A stretch of 64,000 nucleotides of DNA from an uncultured delta proteobacterium (GTDB lineage Bacteria > Desulfobacterota > RBG-13-43-22): NCBI GenBank assembly GCA_963821645.1, contig CAWGEQ010000039.1, forward strand, positions 5,766 through 69,765. Reading direction: 5' to 3'. Position 1 is the stretch's first letter. Every line of letters starts with the position of its first letter. Below, piece by piece: positions 10,563-60,196 of the stretch. The notes below the pieces were generated by a model. It had not been told where the DNA came from. It saw only the letters and a list, made by a program, of their open reading frames with translations, and did no database searches. A program made the translations under genes and the position numbers.

Positions 10563-10706
10563 TCATCCGGAAATCCAAGATTTCCGGATAGCTTTCAGCA
10601 GTCAGCGCTCAGCATTTAGCCCAACTTCCCAATGATAAAGCATTTTGCTGAAAGCTAAGAGCTGATGGCTTCATGCTTCATCCGGAAGAGGGTCGTTTCC
10701 GGATGG
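10563..10706. repeat. tccggaaa-hairpin / TCAGCTN-heptamer element (R2)
   Basis: Near copy of 9807-9934 with extra heptamer units (gtcagcgctcagca). Confidence 0.7.
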
Positions 10707-13447: not shown

Positions 13448-13599
13448 TGTCCATCCGGAAACAGTATCTTTCCGGATGGAGCGGTCAGCTATCAGCTGTT
13501 AGCTTTCAGCAAAATCTTTTACATTAATGAGTTAGCTGAATGCTGATCGCTGACTGCTAAAAGCTTCATCCGGGAATTTTGGATTTCCGGATGAGAATA
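13448..13599. mobile_element. MITE-like copy (R3) of the tccggaaa/TCAGCTN element inserted in the rimO leader
   Basis: 152 bp between TTCA (13444-13447) and TTCA (13600-13603). The paralogous leader at 15401-15420 has a single TTCA and no insert. Confidence 0.6.
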
Positions 13600-19252: not shown

Positions 19253-19304
19253 ACCACATGCAATCCATTTACTGCCATTTCATAAAACGACCTCCATTGA
19301 ATAA

Positions 19305-19403
19305 AAGGTATAAGGTCCACGGTTTACGGGTTTTTAACCTTGGACCTCATACCTTGCACCTTTCACCTTTCACCTTGACCTTGAACCTTATACCTTGCAC
19401 CTT
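19305..19403. repeat. inverted AAGGTNC / GNACCTT heptamer array
   Basis: 19305-19324 pairs with 19336-19355 at 18/20, followed by further ACCTT-type units. Confidence 0.8.
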
Positions 19404-19407
19404 CTTT

Positions 19408-20151
19408 TCAAATCGCCACCAACTCCATCTTCCCCCAGACGCCTACCTGATCCCCAATAATGATCAAGACCCCTTCCACCTGGGGAATCTGCCGGGCCCA
19501 ATCCAAGGCCGGTTGAATATCGTTTTTGGTCTGTACCCGGTTACCTACGGCCGTAGCCAGGGCATCGGAGAGCACAGCCGAAGGAGATAACAGGGTTACC
19601 GCATCGGCCTTGCCGAAGCTTAGAGAATGACCCACCGTGCCCGACGAAGTGCAGAGTCCTCTGGGTGTTGGAGATGGGTCCAGCCGGATTCCTAATCTCT
19701 GACTCAAAGGAGACTGCCCGGCATAAATCCCGATGGTCAAAGGTTCAGGGCAAAGGATAAATAAATCCCCGCCGTTTTCAATGATAATGTCCTTCGATTC
19801 GGCCAATAAATCCTGACCGACAAATTGGGCCATGGCCCCGGCCACGGCCGCCATGGGGCCGACTCCGGCAATCCGAGCGGCTTGAAGCATGGCCTGGACA
19901 ATAGGCGGGGCCAGGGGGTCCAAGGCCAGGGGCTGGAGTGCTTCCTTGAATTCAGGGTTTTGTCGGATATAACTTTCCAGGGCATGGCGGTATTGATAAA
20001 CCCGTTCATACCCTTCGGCCGAAAGATTTTTCCTGGCCCGCACCCAGAGGTCGGTTTCTTTGACCTGGACGGTGAAAGAGACCCAATCCGGAGAATTGAT
20101 TTTACTGCGGTAGAACCGTTCCTGATGTTCAATCATAATAAAATGGTTCAA
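19408..20151 (-). CDS. UPF0280 / ApbE-like family protein
   Basis: 247 aa. GVGPMAAVAGAMAQFVG, IIENGGDLF, CTSSGTVGHSLSFGKADAVT, LSDALATAVGN. Confidence 0.7.
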   Translation of the reverse strand: MNHFIMIEHQERFYRSKINSPDWVSFTVQVKETDLWVRARKNLSAEGYERVYQYRHALESYIRQNPEFKEALQPLALDPLAPPIVQAMLQAARIAGVGPMAAVAGAMAQFVGQDLLAESKDIIIENGGDLFILCPEPLTIGIYAGQSPLSQRLGIRLDPSPTPRGLCTSSGTVGHSLSFGKADAVTLLSPSAVLSDALATAVGNRVQTKNDIQPALDWARQIPQVEGVLIIIGDQVGVWGKMELVAI

Positions 20152-20407
20152 GGTACAAGGTGCAAGGTTCGAGGTTAAAGGTCAAGGATCGAGGATCGAA
20201 CATCAAGGTCTAAGGTACAAGGTACAAGGTTCAAGGTTCAGAAGGTCCAAGGTCTGAGGTCACAAACCGTCCAAGTACCTTGCCTTTGTACTGACAAGCT
20301 ATGGTTTCCAACGGTTTATGCATCCAATACACGGCTTACGGCTTTTCCTTATCCCCTTGAACCTTGAACTTTTTACCTTGTGCCTTAAACCTTGAACCTT
20401 AAACCTT
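20145..20407. repeat. inverted AAGGTNC / GNACCTT heptamer array filling the whole UPF0280-dnaE spacer
   Basis: Left arm 20145-20262 (about 16 units), unique centre, right arm 20354-20407. Confidence 0.8.
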
Positions 20408-20410
20408 TTT

Positions 20411-23400
20411 CTATGGATAAACCACTTCCAAAATCGGATGGCAGGAGATGCCCTTTAGTTCTCTTCTTAACCTGGCCGAAGGCCGGATATTCTGGGTTTC
20501 CGGAAGGTTCAACAGGACCTGGCTTTTATCGGGAAGACAGGCGCAAATCTGGACCGGACAGGCGCCGGGATGTCCCTTTAAAAAATCGGATAACTCGATG
20601 ATCCGATCCCGGGTCAGACCTTCTACCGGAATCTTGAGAACGGCCTGCTGGGCCATTTTTTCTTCGGCCTCGGTCAGGAGCAGCATATCATTGGCAATCA
20701 CCTTGATCCCTTTTTCATCCTTGGTGGTAAACCCGGCAATCCACAAGGGACCTTCTTCTTTCAGGACCGTCGATGATTTTCGGTAAACATCCGAAAAAAT
20801 GATGACCTCACAGGAGCCGGTCAGATCTTCAATGGTGGCAAAGGCCATCCGCTCCCCTTTTTTGCTGTTGATCTCTTTCAAGGCCGCCACCATACCGACC
20901 AAACGCACATTTTCTTTGTCCTCATAGTCGGCCAAGGCCTGGATATCGACTGTCTTTAAGTCCGGTAAACTCTCGGCATAGCGGGTCAGGGGATGGCCGG
21001 TGATATAAAAACCCAGGATTTCCTTTTCATAGGAAAGCTTTTGGCTCTCTCTCCATTCTTCAGCCATCGGAGGCTCGATATCGGGGCGGGTTAACCCCGA
21101 ATCTCCTCCCATGGAAAAAAGACTGAACTGATTTTCGGTCTGTTCTTTTTGACGCTGCTGCCCTATCTCCAGGGCTTCGGGTAAAAAGGCCATCAGCCTG
21201 GCCCGGGCCACTCCCAGGGAATCAAAGGCCCCGCATTTAATCAGGCTTTCCACCACCCGGCGATTCACCCGGCGAAGATCCACCCGCTGACAAAAATCGA
21301 TCAGGGACTTGAAGGCCCCCTCCTTCTTTCTGGCCTCGAGGATGGACTCAATGGCCCCGGCCCCGACATTTTTCACCGCCGCCAACCCGAAACGGATCTT
21401 GTCTTCCACCACGGCAAAATCCAATGGACTCAGGTTCACATCGGGCGGCAGGACCACGATCCCTTTTTCCCGGCATTCGGTGATGCATTTGGTCACTTCC
21501 GTTGAATTGCCCATCTTGCTGGTCACCAAAGCGACCATAAAATCCAGAGGATAATGGGCCTTCAGATAGGCGGTCTGGTAGGTAATCAGGGCATAGGCGG
21601 CACTGTGGGACTTGTTGAAACCGTAGCCGCCGAAGGTCTCCATATTTTTAAAAATGGCTTCGGCCTTCTTTTGATCGATTTTTTTCTTTTTGGTCCCATC
21701 CAGAAAGCGGCTTTTCTGCTGGGCCATGACCTCGGGGATCTTTTTACCCATGGCCTTGCGCAAGATGTCGGCCTCTCCCATGGAATAATCGGCCATCAGA
21801 CCGGCGATCTGCATAACCTGCTCCTGATAGACGATAATCCCCAGGGTTTCTTTCAATACCCCTTCCAGGAGGGGATGCGGATATTCTACCGGTACTTCCC
21901 CATGTTTTCTCTTGATATAATCCGCCACCATCCCGCTATTTAAAGGGCCGGGGCGATAGAGGGCATTGAGGGCGATGAGGTCTTCAAAATTCTGGGGTTG
22001 GCTCTTGATCAAAAGGTCCTTCATGCCCGAACTTTCCAATTGAAACACCCCGGTAGTATCCCCTCGGGCTAATAGTTGGTAAGTTTCCGGATCATCCAAG
22101 GGGATCCGAATCAAATCAATCTTGAGGCCGTGGGTCCGTTCGATGGTCCTTAAGGCATACTGGATGATGGTCAGGTTGTTCAAGCCCAGGAGGTCGAACT
22201 TGATCAGGCCCATTTCCTGGACCGATTTCATTTCATACTGGGTCAGGATTTCACCCTTGGGGCCTTTGTATAAGGGAACGGTCTCGGTGATGGGATGGGG
22301 GGAAATGACCACGCCGGCGGCGTGGGTGGAGGCATGGCGGGGAAGTCCCTCCAGGGCTTCGGCAATGGTCAGCAGTTCTTTAATGGTCGGATCGGTTTCC
22401 TTCAGCTCTTTAAGCCGGGGCTCCGCCTCGAGGGCTTCTTTTAAAGTAATGTTTAATTTCGAAGGGATCAGCTTGGCGATCTTATCCACTTCGCCATAAG
22501 GGATATTCAGGGCCCGCCCCACATCCCGAATGACGGCCCGGGCCTGCATCTTTCCAAAAGTGATGATCTGGGCCACATGCTCTTGCCCATATTTCCCGGC
22601 AATGTATTTCAAGACCTCATCCCGCCGTTCTACGCAGAAATCCACGTCGATATCCGGGAGTTCTTTTCGTTCCAGGTTCAGAAAGCGCTCAAAGATCAGG
22701 CCGTAATCCAAAGGATCGATATCGGTAATCCCCAGGGAATAGGCCACCAGACTCCCGGCCCCGGAACCCCGGCCGGGTCCGACCGGAATCCCTTGCTGCT
22801 TGGCAAACCCCACATAATCGGCCACGACCAAAAAATATCCGGAAAATCCCGTTGTGGTGATTACCATCAGTTCCTTTTCCAGGCGGTCCCGATACTCTTT
22901 AAAACGCGACGGGGGAAAGGAGGGATCCAGTTGTTCCTTCATTGACAGTCTTTTCTCCAGACCGGCGCGGGCCTCATTTTTAAGCCGGCCGTCCATGGTC
23001 TCTTCCGGGGGCAAGGGATAGCGGGGGAGAAAAGATTGGCCGAAGTTCAATTCCAGGTTGCAGCGATCGGCAATGCGCAGGGTATTTTGGATGGCTTCCG
23101 GCAAGTCTGAAAAAAGGGCCGTCATCTCTTCCGGTGATTTGAAATAAAGCTGATTGGTGGAAAAACGCAACCGGTTGGGGTCTTCAACGGTCTTCCCGGT
23201 CTGGATGCAAAGCAAGACGTCATGGGCCTTGGACTCTTCCTGGGTCAGGTAATGACAATCGTTGGTGGCCACGATGGGTATGCCCAACTGACGGTGGATC
23301 TCCAGCAACCCCTTATTGACGATTTCCTGCTCGGGGATATCGTTTTTTTGCAGTTCAAGAAAAAAACGATCCTGATCGAAGATCTCGGCCATTTCCCGGG

Positions 23401-23836
23401 TGATTTTTAAAGCCCGGTCATAGTCGTTATTAAGCAAGGCATAGGGGATTTCGCCGTGAAGACAGGCCGACAGGGCGATCAATCCTTTATGATGCTCCTT
23501 CAGAAGCTCCCGGTCGATCCTGGGTTTATAATAAAAACCTTCAAAATAGGCCTGGGTCACCAATTTGACTAAGTTACGATAACCCTTTTCATTTTTGCAG
23601 AGCAAGACCAAGTGGAAGGCGTTTTCCCTGTGGGGATGGCCCTCTTTATCAAAGCGGCTTCCCGGGGCCACATACATTTCGCAGCCGATGATGGGTTTCA
23701 GTCCATGTTTCTGGGCCTGTTTATAAAACTCCACCATGCCGAAGATGTTGCCGTGATCGGTCATGGTTATGGCCGGGAGTTTGAAGGCCTGGGCCTTTTC
23801 AAACAACTCTTTGAGCCTTATCTCACCATCCAGCAA
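20411..23836 (-). CDS. dnaE: DNA polymerase III alpha subunit, downstream duplicate: complete C-terminus, lacks native start
   Basis: 1141 aa with PHP, polymerase core, OB and C-terminal domains. Frame is open only from a stop at 23915-23917. First usable start is TTG 23836, so the first 17 aa including part of HLHLHTQYS are missing. Confidence 0.85.
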   Translation of the reverse strand: MLDGEIRLKELFEKAQAFKLPAITMTDHGNIFGMVEFYKQAQKHGLKPIIGCEMYVAPGSRFDKEGHPHRENAFHLVLLCKNEKGYRNLVKLVTQAYFEGFYYKPRIDRELLKEHHKGLIALSACLHGEIPYALLNNDYDRALKITREMAEIFDQDRFFLELQKNDIPEQEIVNKGLLEIHRQLGIPIVATNDCHYLTQEESKAHDVLLCIQTGKTVEDPNRLRFSTNQLYFKSPEEMTALFSDLPEAIQNTLRIADRCNLELNFGQSFLPRYPLPPEETMDGRLKNEARAGLEKRLSMKEQLDPSFPPSRFKEYRDRLEKELMVITTTGFSGYFLVVADYVGFAKQQGIPVGPGRGSGAGSLVAYSLGITDIDPLDYGLIFERFLNLERKELPDIDVDFCVERRDEVLKYIAGKYGQEHVAQIITFGKMQARAVIRDVGRALNIPYGEVDKIAKLIPSKLNITLKEALEAEPRLKELKETDPTIKELLTIAEALEGLPRHASTHAAGVVISPHPITETVPLYKGPKGEILTQYEMKSVQEMGLIKFDLLGLNNLTIIQYALRTIERTHGLKIDLIRIPLDDPETYQLLARGDTTGVFQLESSGMKDLLIKSQPQNFEDLIALNALYRPGPLNSGMVADYIKRKHGEVPVEYPHPLLEGVLKETLGIIVYQEQVMQIAGLMADYSMGEADILRKAMGKKIPEVMAQQKSRFLDGTKKKKIDQKKAEAIFKNMETFGGYGFNKSHSAAYALITYQTAYLKAHYPLDFMVALVTSKMGNSTEVTKCITECREKGIVVLPPDVNLSPLDFAVVEDKIRFGLAAVKNVGAGAIESILEARKKEGAFKSLIDFCQRVDLRRVNRRVVESLIKCGAFDSLGVARARLMAFLPEALEIGQQRQKEQTENQFSLFSMGGDSGLTRPDIEPPMAEEWRESQKLSYEKEILGFYITGHPLTRYAESLPDLKTVDIQALADYEDKENVRLVGMVAALKEINSKKGERMAFATIEDLTGSCEVIIFSDVYRKSSTVLKEEGPLWIAGFTTKDEKGIKVIANDMLLLTEAEEKMAQQAVLKIPVEGLTRDRIIELSDFLKGHPGACPVQICACLPDKSQVLLNLPETQNIRPSARLRRELKGISCHPILEVVYP

Positions 23837-23938
23837 GCTGTACTGGGTATGGAGATGGAGATGGACAAACGGGGCTTGAGAACGGCTGCTGGGCCATTTT
23901 TTCTTCGGCCTCGGTCAGGAGCTGCATATCATTGGCAA

Positions 23939-26900
23939 TCACCTTGATCCCTTTTTCGCCTTGGTGGTAAACCCGGCAATCCACAAGGGACCTTCTTCTT
24001 TCAGAACCGTCGATGATTTTCGGTAAACATGAGAAAAAATGATGACCTCACAGGAGCCGGTCAGATCTTCAATGGTGGCAAAGGCCATCCGCTCCCCTTT
24101 TTTGCTGTTGATCTCTTTTAAGGCCGCCACCATACCGACCAAACGCACATTTTCTTTGTCCTCATAGTCGGCCAAGGCCTGGATATCGACTGTCTTTAAG
24201 TCCGGTAAACTCTCGGCATAGCGGGTCAGGGGATGGCCGGTGATATAAAAACCCAGGATTTCCTTTTCATAGGAAAGCTTTTGGCTCTCTCTCCATTCTT
24301 CAGCCATCGGAGGCTCGATATCGGGGCGGGTTAATCCAGAATCTCCTCCCATGGAAAAAAGACTGAACTGATTTTCGGTCTGTTCTTTCTGACGCTGCTG
24401 CCCTATCTCCAGGGCTTCGGGTAAAAAGGCCATCAGCCTGGCCCGGGCCACTCCCAGGGAATCAAAGGCCCCGCATTTAATCAGGCTTTCCACCACCCGG
24501 CGATTCACCCGGCGAAGATCCACCCGCTGACAAAAATCGATCAGGGACTTGAAGGCCCCCTCCTTCTTTCTGGCCTCTAAGATGGACTCAATGGCCCCGG
24601 CACCGACATTTTTCACCGCCGCCAACCCGAAACGGATCTTGTCTTCCACCACGGCAAAATCCAATGGACTCAGATTCACATCGGGCGGCAGGACCACGAT
24701 CCCTTTTTCCCGGCATTCGGTGATGCATTTGGTCACCTCCGTTGAATTGCCCATCTTGCTGGTCACCAAAGCGACCATAAAATCCAGAGGATAATGGGCC
24801 TTCAGATAGGCGGTCTGGTAGGTAATCAGGGCATAAGCGGCGCTGTGGGACTTGTTGAAACCGTAGCCGCCAAAGGTTTCCATATTTTTAAAAATGGCTT
24901 CGGCCTTCTTTTGATCAATTTTTTTCTTTTTGGTCCCATCCAGAAAGCGGCTTTTCTGCTGGGCCATGACCTCGGGGATCTTTTTACCCATGGCCTTGCG
25001 CAAGATGTCGGCCTCTCCCATGGAATAATCGGCCATCAGACCGGCGATCTGCATAACCTGCTCCTGATAGACGATAATCCCCAGGGTTTCTTTCAATACC
25101 CCTTCCAGGAGGGGATGCGGATATTCTACCGGTACTTCCCCATGTTTTCTCTTGATATAATCCGCCACCATCCCGCTATTTAAAGGGCCGGGGCGATAGA
25201 GGGCATTGAGGGCGATGAGGTCTTCAAAATTCTGGGGTTGGCTCTTGATCAAAAGGTCCTTCATGCCCGAACTTTCCAATTGAAACACCCCGGTAGTATC
25301 CCCTCGGGCCAATAGTTGGTAAGTTTCCGGATCATCCAAGGGGATCCGAATCAAATCAATCTTGAGGCCGTGGGTCCGTTCGATGGTCCTTAAGGCATAC
25401 TGGATGATGGTCAGGTTGTTCAAGCCCAGGAGGTCGAACTTGATCAGGCCCATATCCTGGACCGATTTCATTTCATACTGGGTCAGGATTTCACCCTTGG
25501 GGCCTTTATATAAGGGAACGGTCTCGGTGATGGGATGGGGGGAAATGACCACGCCGGCGGCGTGGGTGGAGGCATGGCGGGGAAGTCCCTCCAGGGCTTC
25601 GGCAATGGTCAGCAGTTCTTTAATGGTCGGATCGGTTTCCTTCAGCTCTTTAAGCCGGGGCTCCGCCTCAAGGGCTTCTTTTAAAGTAATGTTTAATTTC
25701 GAAGGGATCAGCTTGGCGATCTTATCCACTTCGCCATAAGGGATATTCAGGGCCCGCCCCACATCCCGAATGACGGCCCGGGCCTGCATCTTTCCAAAAG
25801 TGATGATCTGGGCCACATGCTCTTGCCCGTATTTCCCGGCAATGTATTTTAAGACCTCATCCCGCCGTTCTACGCAGAAATCCACGTCGATATCCGGGAG
25901 TTCTTTTCGTTCCACGTTCAGAAAGCGCTCAAAGATCAGGCCGTAATCCAACGGATCGATATCGGTAATCCCCAGGGAATAGGCCACCAGACTCCCGGCC
26001 CCGGAACCCCGGCCGGGTCCGACCGGAATCCCTTGCTGCTTGGCAAACCCCACATAATCGGCCACGACCAAAAAATATCCGGAAAATCCCGTTGTGGTGA
26101 TTACCGTGAGTTCCTTTTCCAGGCGGTCCCGATACTCTTTAAAACGCGACGGGGGAAAGGAGGGATCCAGTTGTTCCTTCATGGACAGTCTTTTCTCCAG
26201 ACCGGCGCGGGCCTCATTTTTAAGCCGGCCGTCCATGGTCTCTTCCGGGGGCAAGGGATAGCGGGGGAGAAAAGATTGGCCGAAGTTCAATTCCAGGTTG
26301 CAACGATCGGCAATGCGCAGGGTATTTTGGATGGCTTCCGGCAAGTCTGAAAAAAGGGCCGTCATCTCTTCCGGTGATTTGAAATAAAGCTGATTGGTGG
26401 AAAAACGCAACCGGTTGGGGTCTTCAACGGTCTTCCCGGTCTGGATGCAAAGCAAGACGTCATGGGCCTTGGCCTCTTCCTGGGTCAGATAATGACAGTC
26501 ATTAGTAGCCACTATGGGGAGACCCAACTGACGGCTGATTTCCAACAAACCCTTGTTGACGATTTCCTGTTCCGGGATATCATTCTTTTGCAGTTCAAGA
26601 AAAAAACGATCCTGATCGAAGATCTCGGCCATTTCCCGGGTGATTTTTAAAGCCCGGTCATAGTCTTTATTAAGCAAGGCATAGGGGATTTCGCCGTGAA
26701 GACAGGCCGACAGGGCGATCAATCCTTTATGATGCTCCTTCAGGAGTTCCCGGTCGATCCTGGGTTTATAATAAAAACCTTCGAAATAGGCCTGGGTCAC
26801 CAATTTGACTAAGTTACGATAACCCTTTTCATTTTTGCAGAGCAAGACCAGGTGGAAGGCGTTTTCCCTGTGGGGATGGCCCTCTTTATCGAAGCGGCTT

Positions 26901-27124
26901 CCCGGGGCCACATACATTTCGCAGCCGATGATGGGTTTCAGTCCATGTTTCTGGGCCTGTTTATAAAACTCCACCATGCCGAAGATGTTGCCGTGATCGG
27001 TCATGGTTATGGCCGGGAGTTTGAAGGCCTGGGCCTTTTCAAACAACTCTTTGAGCCTTATCTCCCCATCCAGCAAGCTGTACTGGGTATGGAGATGGAG
27101 ATGGACAAACGGGGCGTGGGGCAT
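23939..27124 (-). CDS. dnaE: DNA polymerase III alpha subunit, upstream duplicate: native start, C-terminally truncated by a 1-nt deletion
   Basis: Starts MPHAPFVHLHLHTQYSLLDG (ATG 27124). Collinear with the other copy, with 8 aa differences. Ends ...GFTTKAKKGSR, about 100 aa short. Confidence 0.85.
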   Translation of the reverse strand: MPHAPFVHLHLHTQYSLLDGEIRLKELFEKAQAFKLPAITMTDHGNIFGMVEFYKQAQKHGLKPIIGCEMYVAPGSRFDKEGHPHRENAFHLVLLCKNEKGYRNLVKLVTQAYFEGFYYKPRIDRELLKEHHKGLIALSACLHGEIPYALLNKDYDRALKITREMAEIFDQDRFFLELQKNDIPEQEIVNKGLLEISRQLGLPIVATNDCHYLTQEEAKAHDVLLCIQTGKTVEDPNRLRFSTNQLYFKSPEEMTALFSDLPEAIQNTLRIADRCNLELNFGQSFLPRYPLPPEETMDGRLKNEARAGLEKRLSMKEQLDPSFPPSRFKEYRDRLEKELTVITTTGFSGYFLVVADYVGFAKQQGIPVGPGRGSGAGSLVAYSLGITDIDPLDYGLIFERFLNVERKELPDIDVDFCVERRDEVLKYIAGKYGQEHVAQIITFGKMQARAVIRDVGRALNIPYGEVDKIAKLIPSKLNITLKEALEAEPRLKELKETDPTIKELLTIAEALEGLPRHASTHAAGVVISPHPITETVPLYKGPKGEILTQYEMKSVQDMGLIKFDLLGLNNLTIIQYALRTIERTHGLKIDLIRIPLDDPETYQLLARGDTTGVFQLESSGMKDLLIKSQPQNFEDLIALNALYRPGPLNSGMVADYIKRKHGEVPVEYPHPLLEGVLKETLGIIVYQEQVMQIAGLMADYSMGEADILRKAMGKKIPEVMAQQKSRFLDGTKKKKIDQKKAEAIFKNMETFGGYGFNKSHSAAYALITYQTAYLKAHYPLDFMVALVTSKMGNSTEVTKCITECREKGIVVLPPDVNLSPLDFAVVEDKIRFGLAAVKNVGAGAIESILEARKKEGAFKSLIDFCQRVDLRRVNRRVVESLIKCGAFDSLGVARARLMAFLPEALEIGQQRQKEQTENQFSLFSMGGDSGLTRPDIEPPMAEEWRESQKLSYEKEILGFYITGHPLTRYAESLPDLKTVDIQALADYEDKENVRLVGMVAALKEINSKKGERMAFATIEDLTGSCEVIIFSHVYRKSSTVLKEEGPLWIAGFTTKAKKGSR

Positions 27125-27133
27125 CTTTAATCC

Positions 27134-27355
27134 AGGTATAAGGTACAAGGTGCAAGGTGTAAGGTTAAAAACAACAAACTTCCTCTATGCTTTGAGCTTA
27201 TTTGTTTGCAATATATTTTTCTCCCTCTTACATCCCACATCTTATCCCTTGCCTCCTGATCCCTTAATTCTTTGGGTTTGCACCCTGCGTCTTAACCTTG
27301 CACCTTGGACCTTATACCTTGAACCCTTCACCTTGTACCTTGGGCCTTGCACCTT
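27134..27355. repeat. inverted AAGGTNC / GNACCTT heptamer array (dnaE-guaA spacer)
   Basis: Left arm 27134-27167, ~125-nt centre, right arm 27293-27355. Confidence 0.8.
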
Positions 27356-27359
27356 TCTT

Positions 27360-28919
27360 TCATTCCCACTCGATCGTACTGGGGGGCTTGGAAGAGATAT
27401 CGAAGACAACCCGGTTGACCCCTTTGACTTCATTGATGATCCGGTTGGAAAGGCGACTTAAAAGGTCATAGGGGATCCGGGTCCAGTCCGCCGTCATGGC
27501 ATCCAGACTGTCGACGATGCGCAAGGCGATGACATGTTCATAGGTTCGCTCATCCCCCATGACTCCCACGGTCTTGATCGGCAGCAGAACGGCAAAAGAC
27601 TGCCAGACCTTGGTGTACAAGTCGGCCTTTCTTATCTCTTCCCAGACGATGGTATCGGCCTGACGGAGGATGGACAAACGGGCCTCGGTCACCTCCCCCA
27701 GGATACGGATGGCCAGTCCCGGCCCGGGGAAAGGCTGCCGGTTGACGACCTCTTCGGGCAGGCCAAGGTTGCGGCCCACTTCACGCCCCTCATCTTTAAA
27801 CAACTCCCGCAGGGGCTCGATGAGTTTTAATTTCATTCGGGCCGGAAGTCCGCCCACATTATGATGGGTCTTGATCGTAGCCGAAGGGCCTCTAAACGAG
27901 ACCGATTCGATCACATCCGGATACAGGGTGCCCTGGGCCAGGAAACGGACGGGGCCGATCTTTCTGGCCTCGGCTTCAAAAATTCGGATAAATTCATGAC
28001 CGATGATGGTCCGCTTTTTTTCCGGGTCGATCACCCCTTGGAGTTTTTTTAGAAATGACCTGGAGGCATCCACATAAACCAAGGGGATATGATAATGGCC
28101 CCGGAAAAGTTTGACCACCTTCTCGGCCTCTCCGCTGCGCAGCACCCCATTGTTGACAAAGATACAGGTCAATTGTTTGCCGATGGCCTGATGGAGCAGG
28201 ACCGCCACCACCGAAGAATCTACCCCGCCGGAAAGGGCGCAGATCACTTTTTCGTGGCCCACCTGTTGTCGAATGGCGGTGATGGTCTGTTTGATAAAAG
28301 AACTGGGGGTCCATAAAGGTTTCAGACGGCAGACCTTAAAAAGAAAATTCTTCAGGATCCGCTGCCCGGATGGGGTATGGACCACTTCAGGATGGAACTG
28401 GACCCCGAAGACCGTGCGGGCCTGGTTACCCATGGCCGCCACCGGCGCATTATGGCTTTGGGCAATGGCTACAAAACCTTTGGGAAGCTTTTCGATCCGG
28501 TCCCCATGACTCATCCAGACGACCTGACTCTTTTTCCCTCCCCCTTTGTCCAGTCCGAAGAAGAGGTCTTGAAAATCCAGAAAATTGAGTTCCACCCGGC
28601 CGTATTCTCTTTTGGCCGACCGCCCTACCCGGCCTTTTAACTGATGGGTGATCCACTGCATGCCATAACAGATTCCCAAAATCGGGATCCCTAAATCCAA
28701 AATTTTCGGGTCCGGGATAGGGGCCTTGGGATCATAAACGCTGGCCGGGCTTCCGGACAGGATAATCCCCTTGGGATCGAAGGCCTTGATTTTTTCCCAA
28801 GGCCAATTAAAGGGATGGATCTCGCAGTAAACCTTGGCCTCCCGGACCCGGCGGGCAATGAGCTGGGTCGTCTGGGAGCCAAAATCTAAAATGAGGACTT
28901 TTTGACTGTGTATGTCCAT
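27360..28919 (-). CDS. guaA: GMP synthase (glutamine-hydrolysing)
   Basis: 519 aa. GATase (GICYGMQ), ATP-PPase SGGVDSS, C-terminal ...PPSTIEWE. Confidence 0.95.
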
Positions 28920-28934
28920 TTTTAATACCTATTG

Positions 28935-28970
28935 GGTTTAAGGTTCAAGGTATAAGGTCTACGGTTGAGG
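28935..28970. repeat. AAGGTNC-type arm flanking the four-helix-bundle gene
   Basis: ggtttaaggttcaaggtataaggtctacggttgagg. 13-nt perfect complement (caaggtataaggt) to 29365-29398. Confidence 0.75.
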
Positions 28971-28978
28971 AAAAAACA

Positions 28979-29335
28979 TTAATTCTTTGATCTGGCTTGA
29001 ATCAATTTTGTTAACATACTTGAAATGGCTTGACATTCATTCTGTATGTGGATGAGATTTTCCTGATTTATGTAACCTATTTCAAAAGAAATAAGCGCTT
29101 GTGTTAATAGTTCGGCCAGAGAACCTTTAGCCATAAAAAAATACTGAACAGATTGCTTGTTGGTTTTTAATTCATCTCCTTCTGCGATATTGCTCGGAAC
29201 GGATACCGCAGCCCGACGAATCTGGTCTCTCAAACCATAATCTTTGGAAAAAGGTCCTTCATTGGTTAATTGGTAAATAAAAACGGCCAAAATTTTTGCT
29301 CGTTGCCAGACTTTTAAGTCGAAGAAGTTTCCCAT
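28979..29335 (-). CDS. four-helix-bundle protein (23S rRNA intervening-sequence protein family)
   Basis: 118 aa. DLKVWQRA, LRDQIRRAAVSVPSNIAEG, AKGSLAELLTQ. More AT-rich than guaA/guaB. Confidence 0.85.
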   Translation of the reverse strand: MGNFFDLKVWQRAKILAVFIYQLTNEGPFSKDYGLRDQIRRAAVSVPSNIAEGDELKTNKQSVQYFFMAKGSLAELLTQALISFEIGYINQENLIHIQNECQAISSMLTKLIQARSKN

Positions 29336-29364
29336 GACTTCTCCTCTATTTTCATTTTTTTATT

Positions 29365-29397
29365 TACCTTGGACCTTACACCTTATACCTTGGACCT

Positions 29398-29398
<1 letters not shown>
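29365..29398. repeat. GNACCTT-type arm flanking the four-helix-bundle gene
   Basis: taccttggaccttacaccttataccttggacctt. Abuts the guaB stop codon. Confidence 0.75.
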
Positions 29399-31029
<1,631 letters not shown>

Positions 31030-31030
31030 T

Positions 31031-32068
31031 TTATATGATCATCCCCTCCAGCAGACCGGCATCGCTGACCAGCAGGTCCTCTTGGGAAAAATGATCCAAA
31101 ATTTCCAAAACCAGCAAAAGCCCGGCGGCAATGACATCGGCCCTTCCGGGTTCTAATCCGGCTAATTTCGCCCGTCGGTCCAAAGGCAGGGCGAAGATTT
31201 CTTCGGATAATTGCCGAAGACGATCTTTAGTCAGCACCGTCCCATTAATCTGATCCGGGTCATAGTCGAAAAGCTTTTTGACCATGGCGGCCAAAGTGGT
31301 AACCGTGCCGGCTGTTCCGATTAAATTTTTTATATTATCATTATTCATTAAATTTTTCTTTAAAATATTTTGACAATGGCCCTTAAGCAATTCCGATTCA
31401 TCCGGGCCTGGGGGATCGGATTTTAGAAAACGCTCAGTTAAGGCCACGACCCCGAGGGGCAGACTAAGCCTGTCGGCCATTTGTCCTTCTTTCATAAAGA
31501 CAAATTCGGTGCTTCCGCCGCCCATATCAAATATAACGGTTTCCCCGGACCTTGAGGGAAACATAGAAAGGACCCCCTGAGCCATGAGTCGGGCCTCTTC
31601 CAGACCCGAGATAATCCGCACCGGTAGACGGGTTTCCTTTTCGATCCGGTCTAAAAAAGTGGCAATATTTTTGGCCTCCCGCAAAACGCCTGTTCCGACT
31701 GCAAAAATGTTGGTTACCCCTTCACGGTCGGCCCTGATTTTAAATCTTTTTAAGACCTTCACGGCGGATTCGATGGCCCGGGCGGAAAGGAGTCGGTCCG
31801 GATAAAAATTCCTCCCCAACCGGACGATCTCCCGATCCCGACAGACCGGATAAAACCCTTGTGCTGATTTTTCGGCGATTAACAGTCGTAAGGTATTGGA
31901 ACCGATGTCAATGGAGGCAATTTTTCCCAACGTGGCGGCATCATGGTTAGTGGTTGATTTCTGGAAAGTTATAACAAATCTCCTCTTTGATTTCAAGGAG
32001 ATTATGGGTTCTCCTCTTTCTTGACATAGTTCATCACTTATGAGACACTTCATTCCGTTTAACTCCAA
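31031..32068 (-). CDS. Ppx/GppA-family phosphatase
   Basis: IASIDIGSNTLRLLIAE, DMGGGSTEF. Start uncertain: TTG 32068, ATG 32053 or TTG 31930. Confidence 0.8.
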   Translation of the reverse strand: MELNGMKCLISDELCQERGEPIISLKSKRRFVITFQKSTTNHDAATLGKIASIDIGSNTLRLLIAEKSAQGFYPVCRDREIVRLGRNFYPDRLLSARAIESAVKVLKRFKIRADREGVTNIFAVGTGVLREAKNIATFLDRIEKETRLPVRIISGLEEARLMAQGVLSMFPSRSGETVIFDMGGGSTEFVFMKEGQMADRLSLPLGVVALTERFLKSDPPGPDESELLKGHCQNILKKNLMNNDNIKNLIGTAGTVTTLAAMVKKLFDYDPDQINGTVLTKDRLRQLSEEIFALPLDRRAKLAGLEPGRADVIAAGLLLVLEILDHFSQEDLLVSDAGLLEGMII

Positions 32069-34717: not shown

Positions 34718-35269
34718 TTAAACCTTCCCATCCCGGATAAACCCGGCCCCTGTTTCCAGTGCGGTGGTATTGATGGGAATCATCTTGTGGTAGCGTTTGT
34801 CCAGGGCGCGGGAAAAGGCCTTAACCACGGCCTCCGCGGTGAGTACCTTTGTTTCTTCGATAACGGCCCCCAGCATGGCCATGTTGGCTAATCGCTGGTC
34901 CCCGGCCTTGGCGGCCAAATCAATGGTCGGGACCTTGATCATTTTGGTTTCCGGGTAGTCCCCTTCCTGAGTATCGATCAAAGAAGAATTGACGAAGAGC
35001 CAGCCTCCGGGTTTGACCATGGGTCCGAATCTCAAAAGAGAGGGTTTATTCATGACTATGGCGGATACCGGGTGATGGATTACCGGAGAGCCGATCTCCT
35101 GGTCGGATATGACTACCGTGCAGTTGGCCGTCCCGCCGCGCATCTCCACCCCATAAACGGGCATATAGGTGACATGACGGCCTTCTTCCATGGCCCCATA
35201 AGTCAGGAGATTCCCGATCAACAGGACCCCCTGTCCTCCAAAACCGGCTACAATGACATCGAAGTACAT
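34718..35269 (-). CDS. 2-oxoacid:ferredoxin oxidoreductase gamma subunit
   Basis: 183 aa. VAGFGGQGVLLIGNLL, YGVEMRGGTANCTVVIS. Confidence 0.85.
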   Translation of the reverse strand: MYFDVIVAGFGGQGVLLIGNLLTYGAMEEGRHVTYMPVYGVEMRGGTANCTVVISDQEIGSPVIHHPVSAIVMNKPSLLRFGPMVKPGGWLFVNSSLIDTQEGDYPETKMIKVPTIDLAAKAGDQRLANMAMLGAVIEETKVLTAEAVVKAFSRALDKRYHKMIPINTTALETGAGFIRDGKV

Positions 35270-35284
35270 GAATACAGCTCCTAA

Positions 35285-35323
35285 AGCTCTTAGCTATTAG
35301 CTGTCAGCTTTCAGCTTTCAGCT
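35285..35323. repeat. TNAGCTN-type heptamer arm
   Basis: agctcttagctattagctgtcagctttcagctttcagc. Roughly complementary to 35676-35708. Confidence 0.65.
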
Positions 35324-35375
35324 TGTTGATGAATGAGATAACATCTTTTTCACTTCGAGCAATTCTTGGTTTAAT

Positions 35376-35668
35376 TCATTCATAATCAAAGTTGTTTAAA
35401 AAACCTAAATCGTGGGCAAGTAATAGATGATATTCCAACTCACTGGCGGAACCCATAGCTATTTGAAAAAAGCGGGCCATTTCAGCTTCGCTATTTCTGC
35501 CACACCCTTCCGCAATATTGGCCGGGAATAGAGATACAGGCCCTTCTAACCTGGCTGGTCAATCCGTAACAATTCTTCCTTTGGAAAGCTTAATGTCTTC
35601 TTATACACTTTCAGAGTTAATTGATGGCTTTTCTGCCAAACCATCAATTCTTTAAAATTTTTCAGATG
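35376..35668 (-). pseudogene. decayed four-helix-bundle (23S rRNA IVS-protein family) gene
   Basis: Minus strand reads [40 protein letters not shown]. The +1 frame then reads [47 protein letters not shown]. No start codon, one frameshift. Confidence 0.7.
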
Positions 35669-35675
35669 GCCGCCT

Positions 35676-35708
35676 CGCTTTCAGCTGAATCGCTAATCGC
35701 TAATTGCT
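35676..35708. repeat. GCTNANN-type heptamer arm
   Basis: cgctttcagctgaatcgctaatcgctaattgc. Overlaps the 3' end of the beta-subunit gene. Confidence 0.6.
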
Positions 35709-36458
35709 TCCTGGCTGTATTTCTTTAAATATCCCCAATGGGAAATAGGGGATCATCTCTTCCCCGACCCGCTTGTTAGCCTTTTCCGGGGACATCTTCC
35801 AGTTGGTGGGACAACTGGAGAGGAATTCCACAAAGGAAAATCCCTGATTCTTGATCTGGACTTCAAAGGCCTTTTTCAACATCTTTTTGGCCTGCATCAG
35901 ATTTTTGGGAGTATCGACGGCCACCCGGGCGGAAAAGGTCGTTCCTCCCAGCATGGTCATGAGTTCGGCCATGCGGATCGGATACCCTTCACGGCGAAAA
36001 TCCCGTCCGAATGGGGAGGTGGTCGTGGCCTGACCCAACATGGTCGTCGGGGCCATCTGACCCCCGGTCATCCCATAAACAGTGTTGTTGACAAAGATGA
36101 TGGTAATATTTTCCCCACGATTGGCGGCATGAAGACCCTCGGCAATACCCAGGGCAGCCAGGTCCCCGTCTCCCTGATAGGTAAAGACAAAATTCTCCGG
36201 TCTGGCCCTTTTGATCCCCGTGGCCACGGCCGCCGCCCTTCCATGGGGGGACTCACAGACATCGATGTCAAAATAGTCATACATAAAGACCGAGCAACCC
36301 ACCGAGGCGGCACAGATGGTCTTTTCCCGAAGATCATAGGCATCGAGGCATTCGGCCACCAGTCGGTGGATGACGCCGTGATGACACCCGGGACAAAAAT
36401 GAAAGGGCACATCTTTCAAACTCTTGGGACGTTTAAATACCTGTTTCATTACCTTCAC
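35700..36458 (-). CDS. 2-oxoacid:ferredoxin oxidoreductase beta subunit (TPP-binding)
   Basis: 252 aa. [12 protein letters not shown]...[11 protein letters not shown]. Confidence 0.9.
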
Positions 36459-37507
36459 CGATATACTTTCTTAATCTCTTCAAACAATTCATCGGGGGTG
36501 GGGATCGAACCGGGCGGCCGGCCGTAAAAATCCACATTGGCCCCCTTGTTCACCGAGAGTTTCACATCCTCGACCATCTGACCCGTATTGAGTTCGACCA
36601 CAAAAAAATGATTCTTTTTTTGCGATAGCTCCCTTAGCGCTTCTTCAGGATAAGGATAAAGGGTAATGGGGCGGAAGAGGCCGACCTTCATCCCCTTTTC
36701 CCGGGCCATATTGACGGATGATTTTATAATACGGGCCACGGACCCGAAAGAAACCACCACCATGTCGGCATCATCGGTCAAATAGGTCTGGTATTGGATC
36801 TCGGCCTTCATCTGTTGGTATTTTTGGAACAACTTCCAGTTATGCTGGGTCAGGTCCCCTTCGTTCAGGTAAAGGCTTTTTAAAAAACGTGCATCACGAC
36901 CTTCGGCGCCGGTCAAGGCCCAGGGCTTGTCAATCTCCTGGGGGATATAAGACCGGAGGACGATGGGCTCCTTCATCTGCCCCAGAAGGGCATCACCTAA
37001 AATCATAACGGGGTTACGATACTTATCGGCCAGATCAAAGGCCTTCATGGTCAGGTCATAATTTTCCTGAACTGAAAAAGGGGCCAGGACGATGACCCGG
37101 TAATCTCCGTGACCTCCTCCGCGGGTAGCCTGAAAATAATCTCCTTGTGATGGAGAAATGCCTCCCAAGCCCGGCCCGCTGCGGCTCATATTGACGATGA
37201 CTCCCGGAATCTCGGACCCGGCCATGTAGGAAATGCCTTCCTGTTTTAAGGAGATGCCCGGGCTGGAAGAAGAGGTCATGGCCCTGGCCCCGGTGGCCCC
37301 TGCACCAAGAAGCATGTTGATGGAGGCGATTTCACTCTCGGCCTGTATAAAGGTCCCTCCAACCGCCGGCAGGTGTTTAGACAAATATTCCGGGATCTCA
37401 TTTTGGGGGGTGATGGGGTATCCGAAATAAAATTTACAGTTGGCGGCCATGGCCCCCCTGGCTATCGCTTCGTTTCCGTTTACCAGTTCAATATCAGGTT
37501 TTGACAT
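36455..37507 (-). CDS. 2-oxoacid:ferredoxin oxidoreductase alpha subunit
   Basis: Start at [19 protein letters not shown] (RBS ggag). [14 protein letters not shown]. Confidence 0.9.
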
Positions 37508-37515
37508 AGGGACTC

Positions 37516-37719
37516 CTACTTCCAGACCTCGATAACGCAATCGGGGCACATCTCCGCGCAAAGGGCGCAACCGGTGCATTGGTCCTCATGTTTGATTTTC
37601 GCCACCGTATAGCCTTGGTTATTAATTTTTTTGCTGATAACGATACTTTTCTTGGGGCAGGCCAGGACGCAAAGTCCGCAACCCTTGCACCGTTCTTCTT
37701 GAAAGGCAATCTTTGGCAT
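37516..37719 (-). CDS. 2-oxoacid:ferredoxin oxidoreductase delta subunit (2x[4Fe-4S] ferredoxin)
   Basis: 67 aa. CKGCGLCVLACP and CTGCALCAEMCP. Confidence 0.85.
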   Translation of the reverse strand: MPKIAFQEERCKGCGLCVLACPKKSIVISKKINNQGYTVAKIKHEDQCTGCALCAEMCPDCVIEVWK

Positions 37720-43715: not shown

Positions 43716-45002
43716 ATGTTGGACCTAAAACTGATTCGGGAACGGTTGGCCTGGGTCAAGGATCGGCTGTCCCTGCGCGGCCAGGATTTGCCCTGGGAAA
43801 CCTTTGAGTCTTTAGATAAGGAACGCCGGGAGATCCTCCAAGAGACAGAGTCCTTAAAGCACCGTCGCAATGTGGTTTCCGAGCAGATCGGCAGGAAGAA
43901 ACAGGAAAAACAAGAGGCCCGGGAAGCCATTGAGGAAATGCGTCAAGTTTCAAAAAGGATCAAGGAATTTGATGATGCCTTAACCCTGATTGAAGAGAAA
44001 TTCTCGGCCATACTGCTTACCTTGCCCAATATTCCTCATGAATCGGTTCCCGTCGGTTATTCCAGCGATGACAACCCGGTCGTTCGCACCTGGGGCGACA
44101 AACCGATTTTTTCTTTCTCCCCCCGGCCCCACTGGGAGATCGGAGAAGCCTTGGATATCCTCGACTTCGAAAGGGCCACCCGGATGACCGGGGCCCGTTT
44201 TGTAGTTTATAAAGGGCCGGGGGCCAGACTGGAACGGGCCCTGATCAATTTTATGCTCGACCTGCACACCAAAACCCATGGATACACCGAAATCCTCCCC
44301 CCTTTCATGGTCAACAGCCAAAGCATGACCGGCACCGGTCAATTGCCCAAATTTAGGGATGAGCTGTTTAAATTGGAAGGATGGGATTATTATTTGATCC
44401 CCACGGCCGAAGTGCCGGTGACCAACCTCTTTCAGCAGGAAACCCTTTCCGCCCAGGAACTGCCCAAATATTTTGTGGCCTGTACCCCTTGCTTTCGATC
44501 CGAAGCCGGTTCTTACGGCAAAGATACCCGTGGCCTTATACGCCAGCATCAGTTCAACAAAGTGGAGTTGGTGAAATTCAGTCTCCCTGAAGATTCTTAC
44601 GCCGAGCTGGAAGCTTTGCTGGGAAACGCCGAAGAGGTCCTTAAACGGTTGCAGTTGCCCTATCAGGTGGTCAGCCTTTGTACCGGCGATCTGGGGTTTT
44701 CTTCGGCCAAGACCTATGATATCGAAGTATGGCTCCCCGGACAAAATCTATACCGGGAAATATCTTCCTGCAGCAATTTTGAAGATTTTCAGGCTCGCCG
44801 GGCCAATATCCGTTTTCGTCGGGAAGGCAGGTCCAAGACCGAGCTGGTCCACACCTTGAATGGCTCCGGCTTGGCTGTGGGCCGAACCCTGGTAGCCCTC
44901 TTAGAAAACTACCAGCAAGCCGACGGCAGCATCCTGATCCCGCCGGCCTTGCAGCCTTACATGGACGGCATCGAGCGGATAACCAAAAGGTGCAAGGTAT
45001 AA
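43716..45002 (+). CDS. serS: seryl-tRNA synthetase
   Basis: 428 aa. N-terminal coiled coil, class II motifs ([16 protein letters not shown]). Confidence 0.95.
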
Positions 45003-45091
45003 GGTATAAGGTTCAAGATACAAGAAAAAATTTAAAAACCTTACGACCTTGGCATCAACCCGTGAACCTTATACCTTGGACCGTGGACCTT
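44987..45091. repeat. inverted heptamer array between convergent serS and queD
   Basis: aaggtgcaaggtataaggtataaggttcaag ... aaccttacgaccttgg..gtgaaccttataccttggaccgtggacctt. The last 5 serS codons lie in the left arm. Confidence 0.75.
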
Positions 45092-45098
45092 TTTCTTC

Positions 45099-52654: not shown

Positions 52655-52700
52655 TTCCGCTTTTTTCTTGACAAGCCGGATTGACCATGAATACCTTAAA

Positions 52701-52752
52701 AAGGTCAAAGGTCAAAGGTCAAAGGTCAAAGGTCAAAGGTCAACAGGTCAAA
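52701..52752. repeat. six perfect tandem AAGGTCA units plus one variant
   Basis: aaggtca x6 (52701-52742), then acaggtca. Confidence 0.9.
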
Positions 52753-60077: not shown

Positions 60078-60196
60078 CCGCATCCGGAAATTCAAGATTT
60101 CCGGATGCGGCGTTCAGCGTATGGCGTCGCGTTTAACCAAATCGATTTTTACAGGAGTTTTGCCGAAAGCTGAAAGCTGATCACTGATTGCTCCAT
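60078..60196. repeat. tccggaaa-hairpin / GCTGAAA element (R7), truncated at the right end
   Basis: Perfect 13-bp hairpin ccgcatccggaaa-ttcaaga-tttccggatgcgg (60078-60110) right after the peptidase stop, then gccgaaagctgaaagctgatcactgattgc. Confidence 0.7.

Follow-up and report, generated by a model that had tools for sequence, protein, structure and literature searches.

A decayed S23p-type gene within an imperfect hairpin of heptamer arrays at the beta-gamma junction of a 2-oxoacid:ferredoxin oxidoreductase operon: a candidate intervening-sequence cassette of messenger RNA

The genes for the beta and gamma subunits of 2-oxoacid:ferredoxin oxidoreductases usually lie within ~30 nt of each other or overlap slightly, and the question raised by the locus described here is what fills the 430 nt between them (positions 35270-35699) in a 64,000-nt stretch of DNA from an uncultured delta proteobacterium of the Desulfobacterota (contig CAWGEQ010000039.1, positions 5,766 to 69,765; the whole stretch is called the window below). 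A prediction made from the letters of the DNA and its open reading frames (ORFs), referred to as the original prediction, had described an insert in which a decayed four-helix-bundle gene is bracketed by inverted arms of heptamer repeats. The comparisons presented below show the spacer to be the decaying orthologue of a compact cassette, in which a gene of ~119 codons occupies the loop of a long imperfect hairpin; insertion at the beta-gamma junction took place in an ancestor, related lineages still have the cassette intact, and in this genome both its ORF and its arms are now drifting. The reading that we prefer, with a probability of about 0.6, is that of an intervening-sequence (IVS) type cassette in mRNA, a decayed gene in a heptamer hairpin whose stem would act as an RNase III-type site of processing or stability, by analogy with the IVS elements of 23S rRNA.

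The spacer belongs to a four-gene operon on the minus strand at 34.7-37.7 kb, identified from the ORF list and Pfam, and its position inside an oxidoreductase operon, as predicted, was borne out by the flanking genes, a PF02775 beta and a PF01558 gamma subunit (Table 1). Eighty related operons from species-representative genomes, with beta subunits 55-72% identical to that of the window, were used for comparison. For 78 of them the distance between beta and gamma was measurable; it usually amounted to -5 to +30 nt and exceeded 100 nt in four only, and a search of the 80 loci for a gene of the PF05635 family (intervening sequence protein, IVP) gave none. Since the gaps are short in 74 of the 78 operons and no IVP gene occurs in the 80 loci, the spacer is an insertion relative to the usual operon, and the predicted 430-nt insert stood on its coordinates as well as on this comparison. 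The beta subunits of the closest species-level genomes, which are metagenome-assembled genomes (MAGs) of Desulfobacterota, are 72% identical to that of the window; the closest beta subunits and many of the IVP homologues come from Desulfobacterota/Thermodesulfobacteriota MAGs. No record identical to the gamma subunit turned up in an exact-sequence look-up.

The gene in the spacer is a pseudogene of the PF05635/TIGR02436 four-helix-bundle family, known as '23S rRNA intervening sequence protein' or S23p. Three-frame translation of the minus strand gave a frame 2 piece, KELMVWQKSHQLTLKVYKKTLSFPKEE, a frame 3 piece of 15 residues, a frame 1 piece of 48 residues, a second frame 2 piece, LNQELLEVKKML, and the C-terminal frame 1 piece ISFINKLKAES*, which join into a frame-corrected product of 114 residues. 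The 91-residue frame-corrected core scored 122.8 bits with the profile hidden Markov model (HMM) of PF05635 (cut-off 33.8, E = 9e-36) and the frame-corrected product 133 bits with TIGR02436 (cut-off 24), both far above the cut-offs. The uncorrected fragments also matched the family HMM (E = 7e-22, 2e-10 and 2e-6), spanning in a six-frame scan the profile positions 1-33, 27-48, 46-95 and 95-110 with a change of frame between the pieces. The closest homologue is P0001, an intact protein of 119 aa that is 86% identical with 99% of the query aligned; P0002, also intact, is 79% identical to the corrected product. P0001 matches the five-chain PDB entry 2GSC in sequence (E = 1.8e-19), and through this link the products of the family are expected to fold as four-helix bundles and may be pentameric. 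A DGR Avd identity (Avd of diversity-generating retroelements) was tried and rejected, NF033474 giving 26.4 bits for P0001 (cut-off 80) and no match for the pseudogene, and the neighbours being oxidoreductase subunits.

Family membership is clear at the profile level, and no intact ORF of ~115-125 codons with a start codon is present, which makes the gene a pseudogene. DNA alignment with the intact orthologues located four 1-nt indels (+1, +1, +1, -1) and a lost start codon within 362 nt: extra bases occur near 35569, 35528 and 35378, one base is missing after 35336, and the ancestral TTG start has become CTG (35663-35665). The stop codon is TGA, at 35304-35306. The original prediction was therefore right about the family, on which the HMM scores leave it well supported, about the decay and about the missing start, whereas its single frameshift has to be replaced by four indels and its extent of 35376-35668 by the one given in Table 1.

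It might be argued that the frameshifts are assembly errors, or that programmed frameshifting gets round them to yield a functional protein; the extra base near 35528 does sit in a short homopolymer, CCC. Four indels and the loss of a start within 362 nt are nevertheless found while all the neighbouring genes are intact, and an independent assembly tells the same story. This syntenic contig of a close relative, L163, which was found through the guaB-guaA cassette described below, has flanking genes 97-99% identical to those of the window at the nucleotide level, and its beta-gamma IVP remnant is 92% identical with five gaps, that is, the pseudogene diverges by ~8% against 1-3% for the flanking genes. 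Both contigs have the CTG start and the additional base near 35528; the other three indels of the window are absent from L163, which has two of its own. The lesion pattern in L163 excludes assembly error and programmed frameshifting, so that the artefact or functional-frameshift explanation is effectively excluded, and the common lesions show that decay began before the two lineages split and then went on independently.

The intact P0001 and P0002 are encoded at the same junction, between TPP_enzyme_C (beta) and POR (gamma) genes, on the metagenome contigs L081 and L082. In L082 gamma is followed by the convergent ABC_ATPase gene that also follows it in the window, and the gene directly after a more distant third copy of the IVP gene, L107, starts MYFDVI, the first residues of gamma. 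Flanks and IVP gene diverge in parallel between the window and L081 and L082 (81-85% identity), which points to vertical co-inheritance of an old insertion. The flanking genes of these lineages are only ~81-83% identical to those of the window; on this alignment evidence the insertion predates the split from them, and the 'insert' is not a recent one.

Both ends of the cassette consist of period-7 arrays (Table 1). The stop codon of beta (35700-35702) lies inside the 5' arm, and the Shine-Dalgarno sequence of gamma, AGGAG at 35276-35280, directly outside the 3' array. The last seven codons of the pseudogene, stop included, fall within the 3' array, whose inner units encode K L K A E S *. The predicted arm-cargo-arm layout is therefore correct as a topology, with the amendment that in this subfamily the 3' arm, more than a neighbour of the cargo, encodes its last codons and stop (KLKAES* or KLKADR*).

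When the 461-nt RNA was folded, the arms paired in both the minimum free energy (MFE) and the centroid structure (z = -2.85, none of 100 shuffles as stable), with stem strands at 35669-35721 on the 5' side and 35271-35322 on the 3' side and a stem-to-stem span of 35271-35721. When co-folded, the two arms formed 38 intermolecular bp (-50.7 kcal/mol) in a stem that a small internal loop breaks about once per heptamer, every 6-7 bp. Without gaps, their best inverted match is 18 nt long and 83% complementary. In unit consensus the two arms agree at 4/7 positions, and the outer sub-arrays at 6/7 by eye. That inverted heptamer arms enclose the pseudogene thus holds in MFE, centroid and co-fold, and 'roughly complementary', the wording used for them in the original prediction, is the right one for an 18-nt match at 83% and a helix score between the 90th and 95th percentiles of controls. 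Orthologues carry the same 3' array with gain and loss of units, and the intact L082 has an uninterrupted helix of ~18 bp; it is because of the orthologues and of the family-wide pattern, and not from this locus alone, that the pairing becomes significant. In the window fold the base of the stem may occlude the gamma Shine-Dalgarno sequence, a feature absent in L081, L082 and L163 and not relied on here. An Rfam search of the spacer (E up to 1) returned no family, and that of the window one tRNA and no rRNA.

The family-wide pattern was obtained from one metagenome scan with two internal protein motifs, NI[AS]EGCGR and GSA[ST]ELEY, which yielded 80 further loci. With L081 and L082 added, 77 loci were scorable, some of them near-duplicates (e.g. 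L122/L124, L110/L117 and L087/L088). The 3' array forms part of the C-terminus of the query protein and the 5' arrays lie outside the query, so that only the 5' arrays are unbiased. In almost all loci an (NNTCAGC)n array precedes the gene and a (GCTGANN)n array closes it, overlapping the coding end (AAG CTG AAA GCT GAT CGC TGA = K L K A D R *). A period-7 array occurs at most 130 nt upstream of the gene in 52 of the 77 loci and at its 3' end in 71, and the array density is 5.8 per kb at gene ends as compared to 0.29 per kb elsewhere in the same loci (~20-fold). The arms have a median of 4.6 units, with a mode of 4-5, on both sides.

Minimum-energy duplexing of the 110-nt flanks was uninformative, random controls reaching ~-55 kcal/mol, and a penalised local helix score and a longest-helix measure were used instead. 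The median arm-arm helix score was 46, as compared to 26 for shifted controls of matched geometry (P = 5e-17); uninterrupted helices of at least 14 bp were present in 39% of the loci and 1% of the controls, and those of at least 18 bp in 22% and 0%, respectively. For the 5' arm of a locus, the 3' arm of that locus is a better partner than those of other loci (mean percentile 0.65, P = 2e-5), the own partner being best or tied best in 15 of the 77. With the same layout in 77 loci and complementarity at this level, the argument that arm-cargo-arm topology exceeds chance, originally drawn from two occurrences in the window, was upheld.

Addition of second-subfamily, viral-contig and window loci brought the number scored to 93, of which 50 had clear arrays at both ends and served for a comparison of units. 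Once reverse-complemented, the 5' unit matched the 3' unit at six or more of the seven positions in 54% of the comparisons within a locus and 23% of those between loci, and the matching pairs comprised 18 distinct units by rotation-aware consensus comparison. Complementary cores included CAGC/GCTG, TAGC/GCTA, CAGT/ACTG, CGGC/GCCG, AAGGT/ACCTT, AAGGC/GCCTT, GGGAATT/AATTCCC and GGAGAGT/ACTCTCC; the relatives on 'viral' contigs have CGGC/GCCG, TTAGC/GCTAA, GGGAATT/AATTCCC and GGAGAGT/ACTCTCC arms. In the arrays compared, the heptamer on one side has its complement on the other, whatever type is used, and the layout was found in about a hundred loci from unrelated samples. The conserved C-terminal KLKADR, KLKAES or KLKADS corresponds to three heptamer units (AAGCTGA AAGCTGA TCGCTGA) read in successive phases, and the conservation of this peptide probably reflects the nucleic-acid repeat rather than a protein function.

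Eight loci of the subfamily (L122, L124, L130, L133, L135, L139, L148 and L158) have no 5' heptamer array and a divergent upstream gene, and keep the 3' array. In the L122-type group a small hairpin, GATCATCGGACAGRGGNCCGNTGGAAATCCAG, is conserved at ~60 nt before the gene; an Rfam search of the eight loci gave no match. Residence in operons as a rule was considered and dropped, since co-directional neighbours occur at ordinary frequency (51/74 upstream, 38/59 downstream), as was a phage origin, with only 10 matches in 2.9 million viral contigs.

A six-frame scan of the window with the family HMM detected two IVP copies only. The second, between guaB and guaA, represents another subfamily, the two cassettes being ~34% identical in the best-aligned protein segment. 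For this site the original prediction had claimed the same cargo family and topology with arms of another repeat family, and an intact PF05635 gene between GGTTNAA-type and ACCTTNN-type arrays was indeed found. Orthologous guaB-IVP-guaA loci carry the same AAGGT/ACCTT arms, and the cassette is kept in several metagenome or MAG contigs (L163-L170) at 82-97% protein identity. The guaB-guaA IVP genes of the window and L163 are 93.6% identical in DNA and 97% in protein, which indicates purifying selection on this gene. Second-subfamily paralogues with AAGGC/GCCTT arms lie between lexA and imuB/dnaE2, in the SOS mutagenesis operon, in L171-L175 (gene 2001-2405 in L171); L175 has an extra cargo-less hairpin of the AAGGC/GCCTT family just downstream.

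Table 1. Features of the window discussed in the text, with positions counted from its first nucleotide (Tandem Repeats Finder, TRF; thiamine pyrophosphate, TPP).
Feature	Position	Strand	Evidence and remarks
5' arm (upstream on minus strand)	35676-35709	minus	AGCAATT AGCGATT AGCGATT CAGCTGA AAGC; TRF period 7 at 35688-35708, inverted repeat, fold
3' arm	35285-35324	minus	(AAGCTGA)x3 CAGCTAA TAGCTAA GAGCTTT; TRF period 7 and 14 at 35292-35324
PF05635/TIGR02436 (S23p) pseudogene	35304-35665	minus	translations, profile HMMs, orthologue alignment
Delta/ferredoxin subunit	37516-37719	minus	Fer4
Alpha subunit	36455-37579	minus	PF01855 (POR_N), PF17147 (PFOR_II)
Beta subunit, TPP-binding; upstream neighbour of the cassette	35700-36458	minus	PF02775 (TPP_enzyme_C), E = 2.4e-22
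Gamma subunit; downstream neighbour of the cassette	34718-35269	minus	PF01558 (POR), E = 2.5e-35
Sister cassette, second subfamily	28935-29398	minus	between guaB (29398-30963) and guaA (27360-28919)
Intact IVP gene of the sister cassette, 118 aa	28979-29335	minus	PF05635, E = 5e-34
Arms of the sister cassette	(NNAAGGT)n 29366-29398, (ACCTTNN)n 28935-28966	minus	GGTTNAA-type and ACCTTNN-type arrays; co-fold 35 bp
Cargo-less inverted pair	9829-9896		pair at 9829/9876
Cargo-less inverted pair	10586-10667		pair at 10586/10647
Cargo-less inverted pair	13485-13562		pair at 13485/13533
Cargo-less inverted pair	19303-19405		pair at 19303/19337
Cargo-less inverted pair	20145-20409		pair at 20145/20355
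Cargo-less inverted pair	27134-27355		pair at 27134/27278
Cargo-less inverted pair	30895-31031		pair at 30895/30996
Cargo-less inverted pair	44985-45093		pair at 44985/45037

How such a cassette could act in its operon follows from its place in the transcript. A scan for sigma-70-like promoters gave no match in the spacer, the sole one on the minus strand lying at 37823-37794, upstream of delta. Without a promoter in the spacer, gamma is probably expressed by read-through across the cassette, which would then be part of the operon RNA. In our preferred reading the cassette, having no promoter of its own, would be transcribed within the operon mRNA, where its arms would form a double-stranded stem of 30-40 bp with interruptions. 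The stem may then serve as a site of RNase III-type processing or stability, as in the 23S rRNA IVS that contains S23p; cleavage would excise the RNA of the small gene or insulate it from the host transcript, and would split the beta from the gamma mRNA. In this genome the protein part is dead and the RNA or DNA hairpin alone is left as a relic.

The RNase III-type proposal is made because the S23p-containing IVS of 23S rRNA has the same size and layout and is cut by RNase III in such a stem. S23p-encoding IVS occur in the 23S rRNA genes of Coxiella burnetii, Leptospira, Brucella and Xanthomonas (PMC4990558). That of Coxiella is 428 nt long, with a 28-bp stem of terminal inverted repeats, and has three tandem GACAGAT heptamers and a degenerate one just upstream of the S23p ORF, their number varying between strains; RNase III cuts in the stem, at the first repeat, and the ORF is decaying; the authors rate the RNA as more important than the protein (PMC4990558). 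The window cassette resembles it in the PF05635/S23p cargo, in size (~426-451 nt against 428 nt), in terminal inverted repeats that give a long stem enclosing the ORF, in heptamers in the 5' terminal region, in an ORF prone to decay while the element persists, and in being embedded in a host transcript. It differs in its location, a junction in an operon mRNA instead of helix 25 or 45 of 23S rRNA, and in having whole arrays of 4-6 degenerate heptamers on both sides, the 3' one over the stop codon. Of the features that define an rRNA IVS, the enclosing stem, the S23p ORF in the loop and the size of ~0.4 kb are thus present and the 23S rRNA location is not; cleavage by RNase III has been demonstrated for the rRNA IVS and is proposed by analogy for the window cassette.

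A second likeness concerns the arms. The class 3 sites of Geobacter metallireducens comprise eight pairs of opposite-strand arrays, each of five tandem MTYCTGA heptamers, e.g. in the proB-proA and moaA-mosC gaps, which were read, without experiments, as DNA sites of global regulators of the integration host factor (IHF)/HU type (PMC2700814). They share with the present arrays the inverted pairs of tandem heptamers, the intergenic or intra-operon position, a CTGA-like core and a Desulfobacterota genome, and the two arms of the spacer form such a pair, two opposite-strand arrays of ~3-5 heptamers in one gap. The pair Gmet_I301A/B is ~100 bp apart, unlike the arms here, and the spacing is described as variable (PMC2700814); the class 3 sites correspond to the cargo-less hairpins of the window. 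A term search of the article and its supplements for S23, 'intervening' and 'helix bundle' gave nothing that would link the sites to PF05635.

Two further groups of elements are more remote. The bAvd proteins of DGRs (PF22296/NF033474) belong to a homologous four-helix-bundle fold family, and weak PF22296 matches were obtained for most members of the subfamily; unlike DGRs, the present loci have no adjacent reverse transcriptase or template/variable repeats, and their neighbours are housekeeping genes. Repetitive extragenic palindromes (REPs) are single palindromic units mobilised by RAYT (REP-associated tyrosine) transposases, not heptamer arrays. The arms recall REPs and bacterial interspersed mosaic elements (BIMEs), the short tandemly repeated repetitive (STRR) sequences of cyanobacteria and the TAACTGA repeats of Beggiatoaceae as short dispersed repeats, intergenic or intra-operon, that form hairpins or heptamer arrays (PMC4679880). 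Some 5' arms (L111) have units of TCAGTTA, which on the other strand reads TAACTGA; the TAACTGA repeats differ from the arms in occurring almost only as direct repeats, upstream of start codons and with no enclosed gene (PMC4679880). As to transposable elements in general, no transposase was found by the cassettes examined, the window holds two highly diverged copies in 64 kb, and cargo-less hairpins are numerous, as judged from this one window. In the literature on four-helix-bundle/S23p genes and heptamer repeats the sole link found was the Coxiella paper (PMC4990558). What is new here is the IVS-type S23p cassette resident in mRNA operons, with arms of co-varying heptamer arrays.

Several of the data weigh against a maintained RNA hairpin. 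The near-duplicates reduce the effective sample to fewer than 77 loci, and a recognisable 5' array is missing in a quarter to a third of the subfamily, so that the hairpin is not obligatory. The helix score of the locus itself is 37, between the 90th (35) and the 95th (39) percentile of the controls. The arms of L163 pair over only 17 bp, and this poor pairing gives no sign that the hairpin is kept up after the death of the ORF or for the benefit of the operon. The cargo-less hairpins show that the arms are not exclusive to the cargo and may serve an unrelated genome-wide function. A test for G.U/A.C strand asymmetry was null (36 vs 37 loci, P = 0.62), sense and antisense strands pairing equally well; it lends no support to selection on the coding-strand RNA, and pairing at the DNA level is equally compatible with it. 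RNase III processing of cassettes outside rRNA would finally be an extension by analogy from the rRNA case. An alternative with which this null result agrees is a DNA-level element, in which the arrays would be the ends of a mobile or recombining cassette, or iteron-like protein-binding sites or cruciforms. An enzyme whose gene lies elsewhere would recognise them in trans, and the hairpin would matter in single-stranded or supercoiled DNA and not in RNA. The arms do resemble terminal inverted repeats, the cassette is present in some and absent from other related operons, its gene surroundings are many and unrelated, with no fixed orientation to the neighbours, and unit numbers differ between close relatives, as for slippage-prone DNA. 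The reading of similar paired heptamers in G. metallireducens as IHF/HU-like DNA sites, and the insertion sequence (IS) elements seen near the related class 1 (octanucleotide) paired sites, agree with such a view (PMC2700814). We nevertheless consider it rather unlikely. No transposase or recombinase was seen in or beside the cassettes examined, nor are there near-identical copies in the window, where the two cassettes have diverged to the extent mentioned above; the positions at beta-gamma, guaB-guaA and lexA-imuB are kept over large divergence; the arrays have ragged ends in place of defined termini, with no target-site duplication at the arm ends; the matches in viral contigs are as rare as stated; and the one relative that has been studied experimentally is processed at the RNA level (PMC4990558).

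The arrays could also be binding sites of the encoded protein. PF05635 and Avd-type proteins are taken in this explanation to be positively charged homopentamers, and 4-5 heptamers (28-35 nt) would wrap one pentamer, a unit per subunit; the cassette would regulate itself, and cognate cargo-less hairpins would be regulated in trans. The DGR protein Avd binds nucleic acid together with its reverse transcriptase. The clustering of arm length at 4-5 units on both sides fits this proposal, as do the closest solved structure, 2GSC, with five chains in a homopentameric toroid (PMC4990558), the subfamily-specific heptamers (CAGC/GCTG with the P0001 group, AAGGT/ACCTT or AAGGC/GCCTT with the second group) and the use of the same two heptamer families by the cargo-less hairpins of the genome. 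Recognition is a candidate property, and the correlation of subfamily and arm follows without it if protein and arms are inherited as one unit; many heptamer cores occur within a single closely related protein subfamily, and AGCT-type hairpins persist in the window with its AGCT-type gene dead, other copies being possible outside the 64 kb. Protein binding accordingly seems improbable to us, more so than a DNA-level function. Least probable among the explanations of the arms, and largely refuted, is the absence of any specific link, heptamer hairpins being generic in intergenic DNA, IVP genes merely falling between two of them, and AGCT-repeat arrays pairing in any case. The window does contain at least eight cargo-less array pairs, AGCT is self-complementary so that any two such arrays pair in part, the helix score of this locus is not extreme, and its consensus units match at so few positions. 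What decides against coincidence is the 20-fold enrichment of arrays, established on unrelated metagenomic contigs whose other intergenic regions are mostly without them, the position of the 5' arrays outside the collecting query, by which they were not selected for, and the locus-specific complementarity of the arms (P = 2e-5); moreover, the non-palindromic cores AAGGT/ACCTT, CGGC/GCCG and GGGAATT/AATTCCC are always accompanied by the complement on the other side, and in this subfamily the 3' array forms part of the coding sequence itself.

To our knowledge, the role of the rRNA IVS and of its conserved S23p ORF has been an open question since the early 1990s, and we know of no function assigned to the very large family PF05635/TIGR02436 outside DGR Avd. 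An IVS architecture wherever these genes sit would make the rRNA IVS one instance of a general cassette. It is tempting to speculate, tentatively and with the odds against us, that the S23p rRNA IVS are the rRNA-resident minority of a larger undescribed class of PF05635 hairpin cassettes that act in ordinary operons as modules of RNA processing or insulation, their arms co-evolving, perhaps together with the protein, and that the cargo-less hairpins of Desulfobacterota, the Geobacter sites included, belong to the same system. The heptamer pattern explains the conserved C-terminal KLKADR/KLKAES as a translated nucleic-acid repeat and may explain the paired heptamer sites of Geobacter. The locus itself is of modest consequence, a dead relic by which the beta-gamma spacer is lengthened and through which the operon mRNA may still carry a hairpin; its interest lies in the general pattern that it exposed.

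The beta-gamma gaps of the closest species-level relatives, L001, L003 and L004, have no cassette and other contents. That of L001 (6729-6818) holds a GGGTTCAAGG...CCTTGAACCC hairpin, that of L003 (6729-6801) a (TAGAACN)x3 run and that of L004 (6729-6934) inverted AATT[AT]AGGGA-type heptamers around a G/C-rich hairpin, which suggests that heptamer hairpins are recurrent at this junction. In the window at least eight cargo-less inverted pairs of AGCT/CAGC or AAGGT/ACCTT heptamer arrays were found in intergenic gaps, with loops of ~5-110 nt (Table 1). Their loops contain no IVP remnant by HMM and no similarity to the interiors of the cassettes by blastn-short, and the idea that they are deletion derivatives of cassettes is unsupported in view of these empty searches.

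Some of these hairpins are parts of a composite dispersed repeat, copies of which lie at 9800-9940, 10560-10700, ~13455-13562 and ~60080-60190. It begins with a terminator-like hairpin, CATCCGGAAAT...ATTTCCGGATAG, which is followed by AGCT-family inverted arms with a loop of ~27 nt and, in two copies, by a second hairpin, CCATCCGGAAGAGGGTCGTTTCCGGATGG; the first two copies flank the ORF 9960-10274. The window also contains a tandem duplication of 3216 nt (20660-23875 and 23901-27115, 98.2% identity), which gives rise to two large dnaE-like ORFs on the minus strand (20411-23836 and 23939-27148). It is present as a single copy in L163 and could be a real recent event or an assembly artefact. The longest and cleanest heptamer array of the window, a near-perfect direct array (AAAGGTC)x7, was found at 52698-52750, with no inverted partner nearby.

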